From contig CAWDSK010000006.1 of NCBI GenBank assembly GCA_963804995.1, positions 160,001 through 224,000 on the forward strand: a DNA stretch of 64,000 nt, read 5' to 3'. The translations under genes and the position numbers were made by a program. Below, piece by piece: positions 2,718-8,073 of this stretch; position 1 is the stretch's first letter, and each line of letters opens with the position of its first letter. The stretch comes from an uncultured Acidobacteriota bacterium (GTDB taxonomy: Bacteria; Acidobacteriota; Terriglobia; UBA7540). The notes under the pieces were generated by a model that saw only the letters and a list, made by a program, of their open reading frames with translations, was not told the origin of the DNA and did no database searches.

Positions 2718-2781
2718 CGGGAGATCGCAGACCCCAAAAGACGGGGGTCTGCGCCAGCCCCGATGATGGGGTGTGGCTACC
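2718..2781 (+). repeat. REP-A element (CGCAGACCCC-loop-GGGGTCTGCG) ending in GTGGCTACC
   Basis: Hairpin 2726-2753; near-identical to copies flanking the RAYT gene. Confidence 0.85.
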
Positions 2782-3202
2782 TGTTGCCCTTTTGCCTTCT
2801 GCGCATTTCCGCAAACTGTTTTTCTTCCAACTGGCCGGCGGGACATTGTGGGTCGTGGATAAACTTGCCCATGATGCTTCCTTCTTCCAGGCAGACGGTG
2901 CATTCCATGCGGTAGCTCTCCCCGCCGTCGTCTGCGGGCAGCATGCGGTAAGGGTTTTCCAGCCTGAACTGGCGCATCTTTCTAATCTCACGCCAAGTAC
3001 CGAGGCGGCTCCAGGCTTTGACTTTACGATTACGATACGCTCCGCCCGTCCATATTCGGTGCAACCAGAATAATGGCGCGAGAGGGATCGCGACCAGGAA
3101 CGTAGGTATGAAAGCCAGCCGCCCCCAGCTTTGGCCTTTGCTGCGAGCCCTATCGGCAATCGCCGTGAGGGCTAACCAAGTTCGCTTTTTGGCGTCCATC
3201 AT
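2777..3202 (-). CDS. Hypothetical 141-aa protein, one hydrophobic segment and a CxxC...H...C motif; REP-bounded cassette gene
   Basis: GAGGT SD upstream; TAG stop lies inside GGTAGCCAC of a REP end. Confidence 0.6.
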   Translation of the reverse strand: MMDAKKRTWLALTAIADRARSKGQSWGRLAFIPTFLVAIPLAPLFWLHRIWTGGAYRNRKVKAWSRLGTWREIRKMRQFRLENPYRMLPADDGGESYRMECTVCLEEGSIMGKFIHDPQCPAGQLEEKQFAEMRRRQKGNR

Positions 3203-3234
3203 GAATCCGGATACCTCACCACGGAGCGGATGTC

Positions 3235-3386
3235 GGTAGCCACGGTCAGCGCTGTTCTGACGGTGGGTTCTTTCGTAGAAACCGGAGGCCTAACCGTCAG
3301 GAAGAGTTGAACCCGGCACCTGTCGGCCGCTGGGGTATCGGGCATGAGAAAAGCCCACGGTCAGAACGGCACTGACCGTGGCTACC
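3235..3386. repeat. REP-B doublet (REPIN-like): two inverted GTAG-type REPs
   Basis: GGTAGCCACGGTCAGCGCTGTTCTGACGGTGGG (3235-3267) and CCCACGGTCAGAACGGCACTGACCGTGGCTACC (3354-3386). Confidence 0.85.
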
Positions 3387-3681
3387 CCCCCGTCTCTTCT
3401 TGCTCAATCGTGACGCTGCGACCGTCCGGAAAGTGAATCCAGACACACAGAATATGAAGAACGGGTATGCGCGCATGCACGCCATTGCGGAAAAAGTATT
3501 CGGTGCATCCGGTCACCACTTTGACTGCTCCCCCGTCAAACCAATGGTCGAATTCGCCTGGGAGATCTCCGGGCAGTGGTCGGTTACGCAAATTGCGCGC
3601 GCCATGAATCATTTCGAGCACCTCGGCAACTTCATGCTCATCGACGCGCCGCCGGAATAGCTCCGTGGGGTCCTGAGTCAT
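3382..3681 (-). CDS. Hypothetical 99-aa protein; REP-bounded cassette gene
   Basis: GGAGGAG SD upstream; TAG stop inside GGTAGCCAC of REP-B. Confidence 0.65.
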   Translation of the reverse strand: MTQDPTELFRRRVDEHEVAEVLEMIHGARNLRNRPLPGDLPGEFDHWFDGGAVKVVTGCTEYFFRNGVHARIPVLHILCVWIHFPDGRSVTIEQEETGG

Positions 3682-3737
3682 AGATCATTCTCCTCCATTA
3701 CCCTTGCTTTCATAGGAGGTAGCCACGCTGGCTGGCG

Positions 3738-5650
3738 GTTGCGGTAGGGATACCGGTTACCCGGTACCCCCCGCACGGATCCGTACGTGCGCTGGTTAGC
3801 GCATACGGCTCTTATCTCGGATGTGTGGCGGCGAACCGTTGGGATGGCCAAGGATGCACAACGTGCGGAGCAGGCAACCAGCAGGCCGCAAGCTTCCCCA
3901 GTCGGTCCCAGTTGAGGCGGTGGCGTTGACTGCGTTGACGCAGTTGTGTTCGCCACAGTCGGGTCAACCGTTCCCGAAAGATTCGCAGGCGGTCGAGGTT
4001 TCCCGGTACCGCGTGATAGTTGAAGTAGCCTTGCACGACCGACCGGAGCCATTTACCCGTATCCGCGATGGGATCGTGCCGACGCTGCCGGAGTTGTTGC
4101 TTGAGTTCCTGCAACTTCCCCCGCAGGCGCTTGCTGATCGTCTTCCGCTTCACGGTAAATTGCCCCCTCCGGTTCTTCCCGCTGATATGCGTGAAGCCCA
4201 GAAAGTCGAACGTCTCCGGCTTACCTTCTCCTCTCCGTTTCCGGTAAAGTTCGGCAAACGGCCCGAACTCGATCCGGCGCGTTTTGTCAGGATGCAGTTC
4301 CAATCCAAACTTCCCCACCCGCTCCCGGAAATCCTCCAGAAAGCGGTCGGCTTCCGTCTGCGATTGGAATCCAAGGACCGTATCGTCGGCATACCGCACC
4401 ACGACCACGTCTCCCCGGGCGTGCTTCTTGCGCCACGCCTGCACCCACAGGTCAAAGACGTAGTGCAGATAGATATTCGCCAGCAGGGGCGAGACCACCG
4501 CCCCTTGTGGCGTACCCATCTCCGTCTCCGACCATTCGCCTTCCTCCCTCACCCCGGCTTTCAGCCATTTCTGGATGAGCCGGAGAATCCGGGGGTCGGC
4601 GACGCGATGCTGCACGAACTTGAGCATCCATTCGTGGGATATCGAATCGAAAAATCCACGAATGTCCGCGTCAAGAACGTAGTTCACGTGCTTCACCGTG
4701 AGCGCGTACGAGAGCGCGTCCAGCGCTTGATGCTGGCTGCATCCCGGTCGAAAGCCATACGAGAAGCCCAGAAAGTCTTCCTCGTAAATCGCATTGAGGA
4801 TGGTGACCACGGCCTGTTGGACGATCTTGTCCTCCAGTGCCGCAACCCCCAACGGACGTTGCCGCCCGTCGCCTTTCGGGATATACGCCCTTCGCGAGGG
4901 CTTCGCTCGGAATGCTCCGCGGTGGACCCGGCTGTGCAGATCGACGAGTCGACCTTCCAGCCCGCTTTCATACTCCTGCCACGTCATGCCGTCTACTCCC
5001 GGTGCAGCTTTTCGCTTCAAGGCGTAAAAGCTTTCCCGCAGCAGATCGACCGTTAAGTGGTGGAGCAAGGCCGTGAACTTCATCTCCCTGTGTTCCTTCG
5101 CGGCTTTCCGCACACCCGCGAGTCCCTGGGACACGCGTGCCCCGCTCTGTGTCGGGTGCGTGTTAGGCCAACGGGTGTTCTCCTTGATCAGCGGCCTTCC
5201 CTCCTCATTCTCCGCCAACGGCTTCCCGTCTTTGTTCAAATGATTCATCGGTACTGTTCCGCTGTCCGACTCCTCGAAAGCGTGCAGGCGGGCTGTACGG
5301 CCATCGCCTTTTCCCGCCGTCCGGCCACGATCTACGGCGGCCGGCGCCTCCGAGGTCTCCCGGTTCTCGTGCAGAAAGTGTCTAGGCGTGTCTGGGGTCT
5401 ACGACTACGCAGGACTGTGCCGGAACTCGCGTTGGCGTCCCGGCCTCATGTTGCCTTCCGTTTAGTCTGAAAACGTCGGCGTCCTGATTGGACATTTTCG
5501 AAGCTCAATACCCAGCCCACCTATTCCCCTGTTTACGCTTCACCGTGCGCCTCACGACGCCCAGCGCAAAACTCGGGGCCGAGTGGATCGCTGCTCCTTC
5601 CTCGTGAGAAATTTTCATTCTCTGCTTTCTGCCGGTTTATCCCGGCGCAC
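3738..5650 (-). mobile_element. Group II intron (1913 nt) inserted in a REP-A arm
   Basis: 5' GTGCG at 5650; 34-nt domain V GAGCCGTATGCG...CGTACGGATC at 3811-3778; domain VI ending CTACCGCAAC at 3738; joined exons rebuild an intact REP. Confidence 0.93.
3812..5248 (-). CDS. ltrA: Group II intron reverse transcriptase/maturase without endonuclease domain (probably bacterial class E)
   Basis: AAPGVDG, IPKGDGRQRPLG, GTPQGAVVSPLLANIYL, YADD, FDFLGF, X domain; stop abuts domain V. Confidence 0.95.
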   Translation of the reverse strand: MNHLNKDGKPLAENEEGRPLIKENTRWPNTHPTQSGARVSQGLAGVRKAAKEHREMKFTALLHHLTVDLLRESFYALKRKAAPGVDGMTWQEYESGLEGRLVDLHSRVHRGAFRAKPSRRAYIPKGDGRQRPLGVAALEDKIVQQAVVTILNAIYEEDFLGFSYGFRPGCSQHQALDALSYALTVKHVNYVLDADIRGFFDSISHEWMLKFVQHRVADPRILRLIQKWLKAGVREEGEWSETEMGTPQGAVVSPLLANIYLHYVFDLWVQAWRKKHARGDVVVVRYADDTVLGFQSQTEADRFLEDFRERVGKFGLELHPDKTRRIEFGPFAELYRKRRGEGKPETFDFLGFTHISGKNRRGQFTVKRKTISKRLRGKLQELKQQLRQRRHDPIADTGKWLRSVVQGYFNYHAVPGNLDRLRIFRERLTRLWRTQLRQRSQRHRLNWDRLGKLAACWLPAPHVVHPWPSQRFAATHPR

Positions 5651-5695
5651 CAGACCCCCGCCTTTTGGGGTCTGCGTTCTCCCGCAGGGATTCTC
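5651..5695 (-). repeat. REP-A left of RAYT (5' exon of intron; remainder at 3718-3737)
   Basis: Reverse complement gagaatccctgcgggagaacgcagaccccaaaaggcgggggtctg matches 6025-6069. Confidence 0.85.
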
Positions 5696-5734
5696 CTCGG
5701 TCTCGGGATTACCTTAGAGTATACTCCCCGCGCC

Positions 5735-6010
5735 ATGCCTCTCTACAAGCGTACCTGGTGCCGAAAGATGCTCACGCGTCTGCAGTTGCCTCCCAGCGTC
5801 CATGATGAATCACACTATCGGCTCTGGCAGCGCCGGTTCTACCCTTTCAGTGTTTTTACTGAAAAGAAACGCCAGGAAAAATTGAAGTACATGCACAACA
5901 ATCCCGTGAAGCGCGGGCTGGTCAGTTCCCCGGAAAATTGGCCGTGGTCGAGCTGGAGATTTTACTTCTTGCAGGATACGTCGATCCTCAGGATGGACAG
6001 GTTGGGTTGA
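5735..6010 (+). pseudogene. REP-associated tyrosine transposase (RAYT, IS200-like Y1), internally deleted; HUH region absent
   Basis: LWQRRFY...EKLKYMHNNPVKRGLV..PENWPWSS C-terminal RAYT signature, only 91 aa, no H-hydrophobic-H motif; flanked by inverted REPs. Confidence 0.85.
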
Positions 6011-6024
6011 GCCCTGAGTTCTAT

Positions 6025-6078
6025 GAAATCCCTTGCGGGAGATCGCAGACCCCAAAGGGCAGGGGTCTGCGCCAGCCA
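6025..6078 (+). repeat. REP-A right of RAYT
   Basis: gaaatcccttgcgggagatcgcagaccccaaagggcaggggtctgcgccagcca. Confidence 0.85.
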
Positions 6079-6083
6079 CTCGC

Positions 6084-7505
6084 TTAAAGCAATACCGCGG
6101 CTGCAAAGGTCCGGCCGGCGTTCATCAAAAAGTGCTCGACGATGGGGCCCACGGCGAAGGCGGGCAGGAAGGTCAGCGCGGCCACAATGATGATGGTGCC
6201 GACCAGGAGCAGTGAAAACTGTAGATCGTGGGTCGGCATCGTCCCACTGGTTACGGGCGTCTTGGGCTTGAGGGCCAGGCTGCCGGCGATGGCCAGCACC
6301 GGGATGATGATCAAGAACCGCCCGGCCAGCATCGCCAATCCCAGCGTGAGGTTGTACCAGGGAGTATTGGCATTGAGCCCGGCAAAGGAACTTCCGTTGT
6401 TCCCCGTGGCGCTCGCATAGGCATATAAGATTTCGCTGAATCCGTGGGGACCGCGGTTGGCAAGGTTGGCGGTGGGCGCTCCGGGTGGGTTCAGGTAGGA
6501 GGCAGGGCGAAATCCCATCAGGGTGCTCGCAGCCGCCATGAGCAGGATACAGGCGGAGCAGGCGATCATGGCCAGCATCACCATCTTCATCTCCCGCGCC
6601 ATGATTTTCTTTCCCAGGTATTCAGGGGTTCGGCCCACCATCAGCCCACCCACAAATACGGCCACCAGGGTGATGAGCAGCATTCCGTACAAACCCGACC
6701 CCGGCCCGCCGAAGATCACCTCACCACACTTCATGTTGAACATCTGAACCAGCCCGCTGAGCGGCGTGTAGCTGTCGTGCATGCTGTTGACCGCTCCCGA
6801 ACTCGTGGCGGTACTCACCACGGAAAAGAGGGCTGAACCCGCAATCCCAAAGCGCACTTCCTTGCCTTCAAAATTGCCGCCGGGATTCGTGGCGCTCGCG
6901 GATGGGTCCACACCCTGCTGCCCCAGGAGCGGATTGCCACGTTGCTCCATCGAGTAGGCAATTATGCTTCCGGCCGCCAGCAGGCTGAACATTACGAAAA
7001 ACAGCGCCCAGCCCTGACGGCGGTCGCGCACCATTCGGCCGAACGTGTGAGTCAGCCCGGCGGGAATCGCCAGGATCAGGAGCATCTCCAAAAAGTTCGT
7101 AAAGGGAGTGGGATTCTCAAAGGGGTGGGCGGAACTGGCATTGAAGAACCCCCCTCCATCGGAACTGAGGAGCTTGATCGACTCCTGGGAAGCGACCGGG
7201 CCCCCCGGAATCATCTGCGCACCGCCCTCCAGCGTTTCGAAAGTCTGCCAGCGTTGCAGAATGTAGAAGAGGAGGAAATTCCAGAGGCCAAAGGCCAGGC
7301 ACGCGGCGGCATACTGGGTCCAGCGCTGCTCTCTTTCTCTTATGCCCGCCAGCTTGTATATAAGATTTTCGAGGGGCAATAATAAGGGCGAGAGCCAAGT
7401 GCGCCGGCCTTCAAAAACCCGCGCCATGTAAGCGCCCAGGGGCTTGGTGATGACCAGTAGCAACAGGAAGAAGAAGAGCAACTGTGCCAGGCCAATCTGA
7501 TTCAT
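6084..7505 (-). CDS. kdpA: Second KdpA paralog with in-frame loss of about 125-130 aa including the first filter loop (possible pseudogene)
   Basis: Collinear with 13547-15361 but jumps from LQRWQ to TLEGG; TNTNWQ missing; [30 protein letters not shown] present; GAGGTG SD. Confidence 0.85.
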   Translation of the reverse strand: MNQIGLAQLLFFFLLLLVITKPLGAYMARVFEGRRTWLSPLLLPLENLIYKLAGIREREQRWTQYAAACLAFGLWNFLLFYILQRWQTFETLEGGAQMIPGGPVASQESIKLLSSDGGGFFNASSAHPFENPTPFTNFLEMLLILAIPAGLTHTFGRMVRDRRQGWALFFVMFSLLAAGSIIAYSMEQRGNPLLGQQGVDPSASATNPGGNFEGKEVRFGIAGSALFSVVSTATSSGAVNSMHDSYTPLSGLVQMFNMKCGEVIFGGPGSGLYGMLLITLVAVFVGGLMVGRTPEYLGKKIMAREMKMVMLAMIACSACILLMAAASTLMGFRPASYLNPPGAPTANLANRGPHGFSEILYAYASATGNNGSSFAGLNANTPWYNLTLGLAMLAGRFLIIIPVLAIAGSLALKPKTPVTSGTMPTHDLQFSLLLVGTIIIVAALTFLPAFAVGPIVEHFLMNAGRTFAAAVLL

Positions 7506-7603
7506 GGCGGGTTGTCTCACCTCAAGGCTTGCTAAAGAGAACGAAAAATTGGGCCTGCCGCTAGCACAAATTCTTCGTGACAGGTTTGGAAGGGCAGGGC
7601 TAA

Positions 7604-8073
7604 ACAGGTTGCGGAAAAAGCCGTTGGAGCTGCCATTATCAACACCACCCCTTCATCTCCTGCTCAGCACCAACCCTTTATCTTGTCAGCACCACCCCGG
7701 CGCTCGGCGCGCCACCCCTCCTGATTTAGGAGGGGTGGCGCCGGAGGTGACGGGGTGGTTATTCGAATCCGCCGGGCGGCGTGAGGCAACCATCAGCACC
7801 ACCCCGGCGCTCGGCGCGCCACCCCTCCTCATCTGAGGAGGGGAGTGTTTTTCAGAACTCCCCTCCTGATTTAGGAGGGGTGGCGCCGGAGGTGACGGGG
7901 TGGTTATTCGATCCGCCGGGCGGCGTGAGGCAACCATCAGCACCACCCCGGCGCTCGGCGCGCCACCCCTCCTCATCTGAGGAGGGGAGTTCTGGAACAA
8001 CTTCCCTCCTGATTTCCGTGGCGCCTTGGGTGACGGGGTGGTTATTCGCATTGCGGTGTTTTCAGCAGCCTGT
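7604..8073. mobile_element. MITE-like unit: 15-bp terminal inverted repeats enclosing a ~145-bp-period REP array
   Basis: ACAGGTTGCGGAAAA (7604) versus reverse complement ACAGGCTGCTGAAAA (8073), 13/15; internal CCCCTCCT-N-AGGAGGGG palindromes. Confidence 0.65.

Follow-up and report, generated by a model that had tools for sequence, protein, structure and literature searches.

Two small genes of an uncultured Acidobacteriota bacterium, each tightly enclosed by copies of a repetitive element, raise the question of whether REP sequences and RAYT enzymes can capture and stack genes in the manner of an integron. The genes, ORF1 and ORF2, are found in the window (the whole 64,000-nt stretch of DNA that was analysed) within an 8.4-kb lineage-specific insert separating kdpC from kdpD in this genome. 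A sequence-only reading had interpreted them as promoterless cassettes stacked beside a RAYT gene. Taken as a whole, what it observed was partly confirmed, and what it proposed partly supported.

Framing of two lineage-specific genes

ORF1 (2777-3202, minus strand, 141 aa) lies between GGTAGCCAC boxes at 2773-2781 (-) and 3235-3243 (+), and ORF2 (3382-3681, minus strand, 99 aa) between those at 3378-3386 (-) and 3718-3726 (+). The proposed order of box, SD leader, reading frame and box was confirmed from the sequence for both genes, as was the position of both stops, each being the TAG of a GGTAG (2777-2779 and 3382-3384). SD-like purine runs are present in the leaders of ORF1 (3203-3234, minus strand, 32 nt) and ORF2 (3682-3717, minus strand, 36 nt), the latter carrying GGAGGAG; the ORF1 leader holds no promoter-like site and is too short for a sigma-70 promoter. 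A promoter scan of the window region gave results at chance level, including one weak site directed at the genes (5745-5718, 9 of 12 matches; two found against 1.2 expected). The genes are co-oriented and promoterless with stops adjoining a repeat, as in integron arrays. Gene calls came from our own dicodon model, which missed low-GC genes and chose too short a start for ORF1. When the 7.55-Mb genome was scanned for the precise arrangement (a box, up to 90 nt, an ORF of at least 50 aa with its stop in a box), only these two places had it, which makes the local double-framed pattern unusual.

Between the genes, as had been claimed, lies a REPIN (3235-3386), an inverted pair of REP-B sequences (fold of 3235-3384, z = -4.8) that provides the ORF2 stop. 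It shows a GTAG tag 5' of the hairpin, an inverted doublet and a high extragenic copy number. At 95% identity, its right 57 nt correspond to the final codons of an intact REP-B RAYT gene and to the right end of that element, which makes it an internally deleted RAYT element. Its minus-strand arm resembles a terminator. The outer boxes are stubs: that at 2773-2781 (minus strand) spans about 10 nt and provides the ORF1 stop, while that at 3718-3729 (plus strand) comprises the first 12 nt of a REP-B variant and is truncated by an A' element. Neither has a REP-B hairpin, and the REP-B profile search missed both. REP-B occurs in 175 copies in this genome, and its pattern is also present in 26 of 28 congeners. 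AG stands at -5/-4 of the REP-B outer ends in 67 and 84 of 114 copies. The usual AGCGG outer end is missing from all four window boxes, whose junctions are therefore non-canonical. REP-B 3' ends fall at offset 0 to a stop in 3 of 82 cases and few 5' ends lie within 45 nt, and two adjacent genes with a stop in the box and a leader below 40 nt are rare even for REP-B.

For the stops, the result is one that the sequence-only reading had itself named as contrary to its model. Across the genome, 21 of 1080 REPs hold a stop codon inside GTAG, compared with a mean of 2.0 at neighbouring offsets, so that the feature is generic for REPs here. Many of these REPs sit on the natural stops of core genes whose orthologues are equally long: for five core genes, orthologue length agreed within 1 aa in 18 of 19 comparisons and was 3 aa shorter in one (a further search matched nothing in 5 genomes, and 4 of the 21 stop-overlap genes fell outside the comparison). 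These orthologues end in TGA, TAA or TAG, mostly without a REP. Because a REP landing in frame within the last codons donates its TAG, a peak at offset 0 would arise with no special targeting, and Poisson P values for it were set aside.

Neither gene was found in a search of 60 relatives, and both are missing from all 20 orthologous kdpC-kdpD loci fetched, 13 of which have kdpD directly after kdpC. In three relatives (L053, L059, L063) the gap holds REPs and no cargo. Of the public sequencing runs listed, two matched weakly (share 0.04) and none was an RNA run; the two gave only repeat and intron relatives and no informative joint. Together with the variable REP-B arrays described below, the absence of both genes from these relatives bears out the expectation that gene content between REPs varies.

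ORF1 and ORF2 gave no Pfam or NCBIfam family matches and no usable match in an Atlas search; viral contigs held no ORF1 relative and a single 13-residue ORF2 match, which was disregarded. ORF1 is a member of an acidobacterial accessory family, with a hydrophobic N-terminal part and a C-terminal domain of about 75 aa whose conserved Cys/His residues form a putative zinc site. Its homologues sit in many contexts, and in none of the 27 loci parsed (of 28; L044 was left out of the framing test) were they framed by REPs or accompanied by REP-B or a RAYT. Two of the 27 (L035, L037) end in GGTAG without a REP; in two others (L025, L026) GTAG-tagged hairpins were seen by eye about 25-30 nt past the stop and were missed by the automated test. 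ORF2 belongs to an unnamed domain family of about 90 aa (201 clusters at 50% identity), among whose members zinc ribbon fusions are frequent. Its structure model is alpha+beta and well folded (pLDDT 94), and fold searches gave no clear match (lowest Foldseek E 0.07, highest Z 5.5). The family was present in one of 400 sampled genomes of the phylum, where the gene also ends in ...TGG TAG, with no REP hairpin after the stop by eye; it is absent from all 28 ORF1 homologue loci. Homologues of both genes (P0001/P0014), 88% identical to ORF1 and 82% to ORF2 with unchanged C-terminal residues, probably share one 2,833-nt contig elsewhere, judging from equal lengths.

The neighbouring RAYT remnant and its intron

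What had been read as inverted REP-A caps proved to be the 10-12-nt REP-B stubs joined to hairpin ends of the RAYT's own A' family, which are tagged with GGCTGGCG rather than GTAG. A solitary A' end at 2718-2759 (minus strand) is a 93% direct repeat of the right terminus of the RAYT element (6036-6077, minus strand), whereas the left terminus is split by an intron into its first 8 nt (3730-3737, plus strand) and the remaining hairpin (5651-5695, plus strand), both termini being recognised by sequence repeat and fold. The remnant is therefore flanked by inverted cognate hairpins, and the intact RAYTs L008, L009 and L011 likewise carry A' ends on their flanks. REP-B stubs lie upstream of 5 of the 108 GGCTGGCG-tagged A' termini in the genome against 0.16 expected, which suggests that A' elements landed in REP-B copies.

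The gene between these ends (5735-6010, plus strand) is a 91-aa remnant and not the functional HUH enzyme that had been assumed. An in-frame deletion of 276 nt (92 codons) takes out the HUH motif kept in L008, L009 and L011, while the Y-x3-NP catalytic motif is retained (YMHNNP); HUH and Y together form the catalytic core of these enzymes in the account consulted (PMC6006769). The remnant is 83% identical to an intact paralogue (G000:C6:722,9xx-722,2xx), scores 53.7 bits against NF047646 (NCBIfam cut-off 80) and gives no match to Pfam Y1_Tnp (PF01797). It is catalytically incomplete. As the A' family has different ends from the REP-B RAYT and shares only 29-31% identity with it, the remnant also appears non-cognate to the GGTAGCCAC boxes on either side of the genes.

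Nor do the genes abut the RAYT directly, since a 1,913-nt group II intron (3738-5650, minus strand) with an RT/maturase ORF (5248-3812) intervenes. It has catalytic RNA domains and a GUGCG 5' end, matches RVT_1 and RF02005 (170 bits), and falls just below the cut-off of 40 for RF00029 (39.2 bits). About 40 near-identical copies are present in the genome, and the complete copies examined all occupy the same spot of A/A' hairpins.

REP-B arrays in related genomes

The RAYT clade that is flanked by REP-B comprises L073, L096-L098, L100 and L106. In this genome the intact cognate REP-B RAYT is represented by fragments only, an absence that is provisional given an assembly 92% complete; full-length, stop-free genes of at least 76% identity are present in 5 of 28 congeners, intact examples being G026:C3:150264-150767 and G007:C240:41734-42237. 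Arrays in which 6-10 REP-B ends alternate with small accessory blocks occur in this genome (G000, C1:653-661 kb) as well as in G013, G001 and G005. REP-B is clustered (22 of 102 inter-unit gaps below 2.5 kb, against 3.6 +/- 1.8), and the 30 genes it encloses are small, 73% being shorter than 150 aa compared with 26% genome-wide. In this genus, REP-B miniature elements cluster and also punctuate arrays rich in toxin-antitoxin genes. The 6.8-kb array of G005 begins exactly at a REP-B end and occupies the rimM-trmD gap, in which all 20 of the other genomes fetched carry nothing. Five segments of cargo plus REP-B, 480-1,337 bp long and 86-99% identical, turn up again at unrelated loci, in arrays whose flanks differ, and reassorted blocks were observed only in such arrays, away from the window genes; for these five blocks, and not for ORF1, the same cargo has the same miniature ends on one side and partly on both. 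Some common blocks stop within 5 nt of REP-B outer ends, usually at only one end, and such block ends are in part an artefact of BLAST alignments running through any REP-B copy.

PIN/ParE toxin genes are enriched 3.5-fold near REP-B compared with 1.3-2.3-fold near nine other repeat classes, and only 4 of 87 have REP-B on both sides. A vapBC array block lacks REP-B at its ends in all seven other genomes examined. Within the arrays, gene orientation is mixed, distances to REP-B vary and several blocks bring their own promoters. REP-bounded variable gene blocks are real, and this part of the proposed gene capture stands; its local cassette model, with a dead, apparently non-cognate enzyme and unframed ORF1 homologues, is not supported. 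The blocks do not prove a dedicated mechanism of integron-like capture, nor is the window locus the engine of one.

Origin of the locus and relation to known systems

We lean, with modest confidence, towards viewing the locus as a small, old piece of repeat-jointed accessory patchwork, a relic of accretion at REP-B joints rather than an active cassette machine. A cognate RAYT, supplied in trans or once present in an ancestor, would cut REP-B elements and join them to flanking DNA with low target specificity; low-specificity CT/CA cleavage and strand transfer are described for TnpA_REP in the sections cited (PMC3333891, PMC8266576). REP-B elements would then act as joints at which blocks of foreign genes are gained or swapped, whether through strand transfer by the RAYT or through recombination of one 150-290-nt copy with another. 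Only joints sparing the reading frame and ribosome site would survive, so that REP ends would come to lie on stop codons and next to leaders. Afterwards, A' elements would have hit both outer REP-B copies, leaving the stubs, before the A' RAYT lost its core and the intron homed into the A' end last, an order suggested by nesting only. Against this account we count the non-canonical box junctions, the lack of any empty or reordered allele seen for the window locus, and the rarity of the tight double framing, for which precise capture is no worse an explanation than selective trimming.

That the adjacent RAYT works as an integrase-like enzyme for the cassettes seems very improbable: its proximity and the weak promoter-like site directed at the genes are outweighed by the deleted HUH motif and by its distance from the REP-B RAYT in sequence and ends. 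Somewhat better placed, if still unlikely, is capture in trans, in which a REP-B RAYT would move single-stranded gene blocks at REP-B ends in an integron-like way and ORF1 and ORF2 would be two such cassettes. The equally tight framing of both genes, the arrays in four genomes, the de novo array at rimM-trmD, the common blocks ending close to REP-B, the toxin gene enrichment and the intact cognate RAYTs of five congeners all speak for it. However, few PIN/ParE genes have REP-B on both sides, the vapBC block lacks REP-B ends elsewhere, and common segments mostly have one REP-B end, some of these ends being alignment artefacts; array genes face both ways at variable distances, there is no fixed insertion site, the enzyme gene occupies no fixed end, and none of the 27 ORF1 homologue loci has REP-B or a RAYT.

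A rather doubtful alternative, pure decoration, would have the two-gene island arrive by another route, with REP-B inserting independently at gene borders later and taking no part in gene movement. REPs of all families lie near gene ends and toxin-antitoxin genes (in the portion of PMC3733652 consulted), and the kdpC-kdpD gap draws REPs without cargo in relatives. The probable co-occurrence of both homologues on one short contig suggests a stable pair, and ORF2 relatives being often fused to zinc ribbons, like the zinc-binding look of ORF1, could point to one operon. Yet three independent insertions framing both genes this tightly would be improbable, the absence of the ORF2 family from all ORF1 homologue loci means that the pair is not a conserved operon, and both the start of the G005 array at a REP-B end and the cargo-REP-B junctions common to unrelated loci are left unexplained. 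Larger REP-B arrays in related bacteria leave room for a role of the repeat in gene shuffling. The wider claim, that in this genus REP-B RAYTs and GGTAGCCAC-tagged miniatures form an HUH-based counterpart of the integron that builds toxin-antitoxin and defence arrays at arbitrary sites, a ribosomal operon included, with the window genes as relic cassettes, we consider unlikely on present evidence.

In integrons and CALIN arrays, accessory genes are small, lack promoters and end at a repeat; such arrays are rich in toxin-antitoxin genes, and their attC core sites read RYYYAAC...GTTRRRY. The window genes resemble them in being small and promoterless with stops at the repeat, and the REP-B arrays in their toxin-antitoxin content. 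Unlike integrons, there is no IntI or attI at the locus, array orientation is mixed, and the repeats, miniatures derived from a transposase, are also found as single copies next to core genes. No PF00589 match was found in the window, the nearest of 11 matches to this family-level profile lying about 100 kb off on the contig, and inspection of 3235-3386 and 2718-2781 found no attC core sites.

The closest likeness is to REP/REPIN-RAYT systems (TnpA_REP, REPtron), whose GTAG-tagged hairpins occur in inverted pairs, in high copy and near gene 3' ends, with RAYT genes between inverted cognate ends (PMC2817692, PMC3333891, PMC8266576, bioRxiv 2021.07.10.451892), and to the BIMEs of Nunvar et al., where the RAYT 3' end and downstream REP are built into the repeat. 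As far as these systems are described in the passages cited, the present case differs: each genome has RAYTs of several families together with many remnants, the A' family is tagged GGCTG instead of GTAG, and REP-B punctuates multi-kb accessory arrays with cargo junctions common across species. In marine picocyanobacteria, full and truncated (often C-terminal) RAYT copies at TnpA_REP/procA loci alternate with small variable genes, and diversifying recombination was proposed, although the authors later saw no strong evidence of causation; there, a single cargo family and, by their account, a different RAYT subclass are involved, whereas the cargo here is unrelated (bioRxiv 2020.03.09.984088, as excerpted). 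Non-autonomous miniatures also border unrelated cargo, mobilised in trans, in MITE-flanked composite or mosaic transposons such as TIMEs, which are DDE-derived (PMC4133298, in part), whereas the parent here is an HUH/Y1 single-strand transposase. Replacement of the E. coli REPtron by hicAB in some strains likewise places a toxin-antitoxin pair at a RAYT/REP site, but the part of the report cited describes a single event, in which BIMEs were lost with the gene and no array formed (PMC3333891).

The host role of REPs and RAYTs is still described as open (bioRxiv 2021.07.10.451892, in the section cited). By itself, the window locus amounts to ordinary debris left by several mobile elements of known kinds. 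The idea that RAYTs and REPs move cargo genes can now be tested directly: the repeat family has a name, five related genomes encode intact cognate enzymes, one array comes with a clean empty-site control, and arrays have blocks in common. If the idea holds, accessory and defence islands would have a new route of assembly; if it fails, REP miniatures would still be shown to act as recombination joints.

The framed genes and the neighbouring RAYT remnant

The source genome (7.55 Mb, 58% GC, with many hairpin repeats) carries two small minus-strand genes, ORF1 (141 aa, 3202-2777) and ORF2 (99 aa, 3681-3382), and their framing is real: the four 9-nt boxes, two ORFs with stops inside GGTAG, leaders of 32 and 36 nt and the inverted pair at 3235-3386 all exist as the sequence-only reading described them. 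The engine it proposed was wrong. Integron features had served as the comparison for cassette arrays, with the adjacent RAYT as the enzyme. Aligned with an intact paralogue, this 91-aa gene (5735-6010) shows a 276-nt in-frame deletion, with HUH lost and Y-x3-NP kept, and it scores under the RAYT family cut-off. The hairpins at its ends carry the tag GGCTGGCG and belong to family A' (108 termini in the genome), as do those of the intact paralogues at L008, L009 and L011. Because HUH and Y jointly form the catalytic core (PMC6006769), the remnant cannot be an active enzyme, and the model of a neighbouring RAYT working as cassette integrase is nearly excluded. Its left A' end is split by a group II intron (3738-5650) with about 40 copies; the 38 complete copies examined share a single target position in A and A' hairpins.

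The stop inside GGTAG likewise failed as a cassette mark. In this genome, 21 of the 1080 rule-defined GTAG REPs provide a called gene with its stop codon, compared with a baseline mean of 2.0 per position (offsets -60 to -4); these genes are mostly ordinary ones without a 5' REP. For five of them, compared in up to five congeners, orthologue length was within 1 aa in 18 of 19 comparisons and 3 aa shorter in the other; the orthologues end in TGA, TAA or TAG, mostly without a REP, and in one of them a REP from another family occupies that stop. Since length is kept mostly without a REP, REP ends come to lie on the natural stop codons of genes that stay in place. That REPs occur close to gene 3' ends was already known (PMC3733652).

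A whole-genome scan found the exact box-leader-ORF-box unit only at these two genes, and a relaxed scan of the 1080 GTAG-hairpin REPs added two weak candidates. Both products look like real proteins: ORF1 has 12 database homologues (named records all Acidobacteriota) with an invariant NPYRMLP-DDGGESYRMEC core and conserved Cys/His, and ORF2, whose fold is predicted with confidence, is one member of a 201-cluster family. A search of 60 relatives, including 28 congeners, turned up neither. Parsing succeeded for 27 of the 28 ORF1 homologue loci taken: the gene ends in TGA or TAA at 25 and in TAG at 2, its neighbourhood differs between loci, and all 27 lack REP-B (the repeat family of the boxes), a RAYT and any ORF2-family gene. 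These loci show that the ORF1 gene travels without REPs; they do not prove that it was never captured in the source genome, because they belong to other lineages. At five homologue loci (L017, L023, L029, L031, L034) the gene is wedged between two others, a putative BlaI-type repressor gene and its putative partner, and overlaps their ends. Homologues P0001 of ORF1 (88%) and P0014 of ORF2 (82%), on two contigs each (longest 2,833), end in the same residues as the window proteins, which suggests that the pair and its junctions may be old and stable.

REP-B and the kdp insert

The boxes, GGTAGCCAC, are the start of REP-B, a family distinct from A' with 175 copies in the genome by profile and its pattern in 26 of 28 congeners. 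REP-B borders a separate RAYT clade (29-31% identity to A' RAYTs), of which full-length, stop-free members (at least 76% identity) occur in 5 of 28 congeners; in the source genome fragments were found and no intact copy. Within the REPIN (3235-3386), 57 nt match at 95% the final codons and right terminus of the REP-B RAYT element, so that the REPIN is a miniature derivative. One REP-B RAYT gene (L073:5150-5870, genome G020) holds an in-frame REP-B copy inside its own 3' part; this copy and the 3' end of the gene together match the most abundant REP-B miniature subfamily, suggesting how that subfamily may have arisen. The two outer boxes are 10-12-nt stubs joined straight to A' ends; such stubs occur at 5 of 108 A' termini (0.16 expected), and 8 of 108 lie within 200 nt of REP-B (about 1 expected). 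The simplest history would run REP-B, ORF2, REP-B, ORF1, REP-B, with both outer copies later overwritten. This locus amounts to a remnant patchwork of elements already known.

It sits within the kdp cluster. In 20 orthologous loci, from 27 congeners with a match, kdpC lies directly 5' of the kdpD-like gene in 13, other inserts occur in 4 (a porin or porin piece in 2), 2 are rearranged and 1 is cut by a contig end; ORF1, ORF2 and the RAYT remnant are in none. In the source genome kdpC and the kdpD-like gene are 8.4 kb apart. The insert also holds a second kdpA-like gene (6084-7520; 63% identity to the main kdpA, about 100 profile positions missing, stop 6 nt from an A' end), and each of its blocks is repeat-separated, as a cluster of another hairpin family (7636-8050) divides this gene from a porin-like one. 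At 35-2412 lies a tandem gene pair, kept across the genus, with KdpD sensor domains (one also Usp) and no kinase-domain match. A degenerate repeat about 150 nt long (2544-2720) is scattered over the genome, with about 120 BLAST matches there and, among the matches listed, only one in congeners; it has no GTAG tag and no Rfam match.

REP-B arrays beyond the locus

REP-B units are clustered, with 22 of their 102 gaps shorter than 2.5 kb (a few internal to one element or containing the group II intron) versus 3.6 +/- 1.8 for random intergenic placement, and 73% of 30 enclosed genes encode fewer than 150 aa versus 26% genome-wide. In one array (L065, G000:C1:653,300-661,000) miniatures alternate with PIN, MazE, DUF4258, HNH and unknown genes. 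Its blocks, mostly co-oriented, comprise two PIN toxin pairs, a DUF4258 pair, HNH, and secreted and unknown genes, and several stops abut REP-B ends. DNA search with this array found similar ones in congeners G013, G001 and G005. That of G005 (L069:5150-11530), the best case for testing cargo capture, occupies 6,771 nt between rimM and trmD in a ribosomal operon; its start coincides exactly with a REP-B end, and it has eight REP-B ends and nine called genes, toxin-antitoxin and defence-like, two of them PIN. In all 20 other genomes taken of 28 with trmD, the same gap contains no gene and does not exceed 351 nt; in most congeners (L126-L145) it holds short inverted arrays of varied 7-nt units.

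Five cargo-plus-REP-B segments (480-1,337 bp, 86-99% identity) are shared between arrays whose flanks are unrelated, and every one of them has one or both ends no more than 5 nt from the outer end of a REP-B. Such ends are partly automatic, because BLAST extends through any REP-B copy; the informative part is the common cargo-REP-B junction. The remaining ends fall within a miniature, at the end of a gene or at arbitrary points. Within 700 nt of REP-B, PIN and ParE genes are over-represented 3.5-fold (14 of 87), compared with 1.3-2.3-fold for other repeats; just 4 of the 87 have REP-B on both sides. The vapBC block recurs, from -35-like box to stop, in seven other genomes with no REP-B at its ends. 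At 31 congener loci, none of 30 gene 3' ends adjoining REP-B has its stop on GTAG, and gene orientation is mixed. Pure decoration by REP-B and a dedicated RAYT cassette system are both unlikely readings, to about the same degree.

A possible route for block joining

In two studies (PMC3333891, PMC8266576), TnpA_REP binds GTAG-tagged single-stranded hairpins, cleaves on either side of them at weakly specific CT (or CA) sites and carries out strand transfer; REP-B ends are mostly AGCGG-GTAG, which is CT on the other strand. We lean, by a modest degree, towards REP-B miniatures, moved in trans, seeding sites where foreign blocks would join, through TnpA_REP-like strand transfer or recombination between REP-B copies, with selection keeping the joints that spare reading frame and ribosome site.

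REP/REPIN-RAYT systems and, reportedly, MITE-flanked mosaics (PMC4133298) are among the closest known to these arrays. So are the TnpA_REP-procA association, for which the authors report no strong evidence of causation (bioRxiv 2020.03.09.984088), and hicAB in place of the E. coli REPtron (PMC3333891); related literature includes PMC5581495, PMC2817692, bioRxiv 2021.07.10.451892 and bioRxiv 2024.07.17.603846. The literature searched, in which subscription papers are thinly covered, yielded no description of REP-bounded toxin-antitoxin arrays. The REP-B arrays represent a novel form of REP/RAYT organisation that lends itself well to testing.
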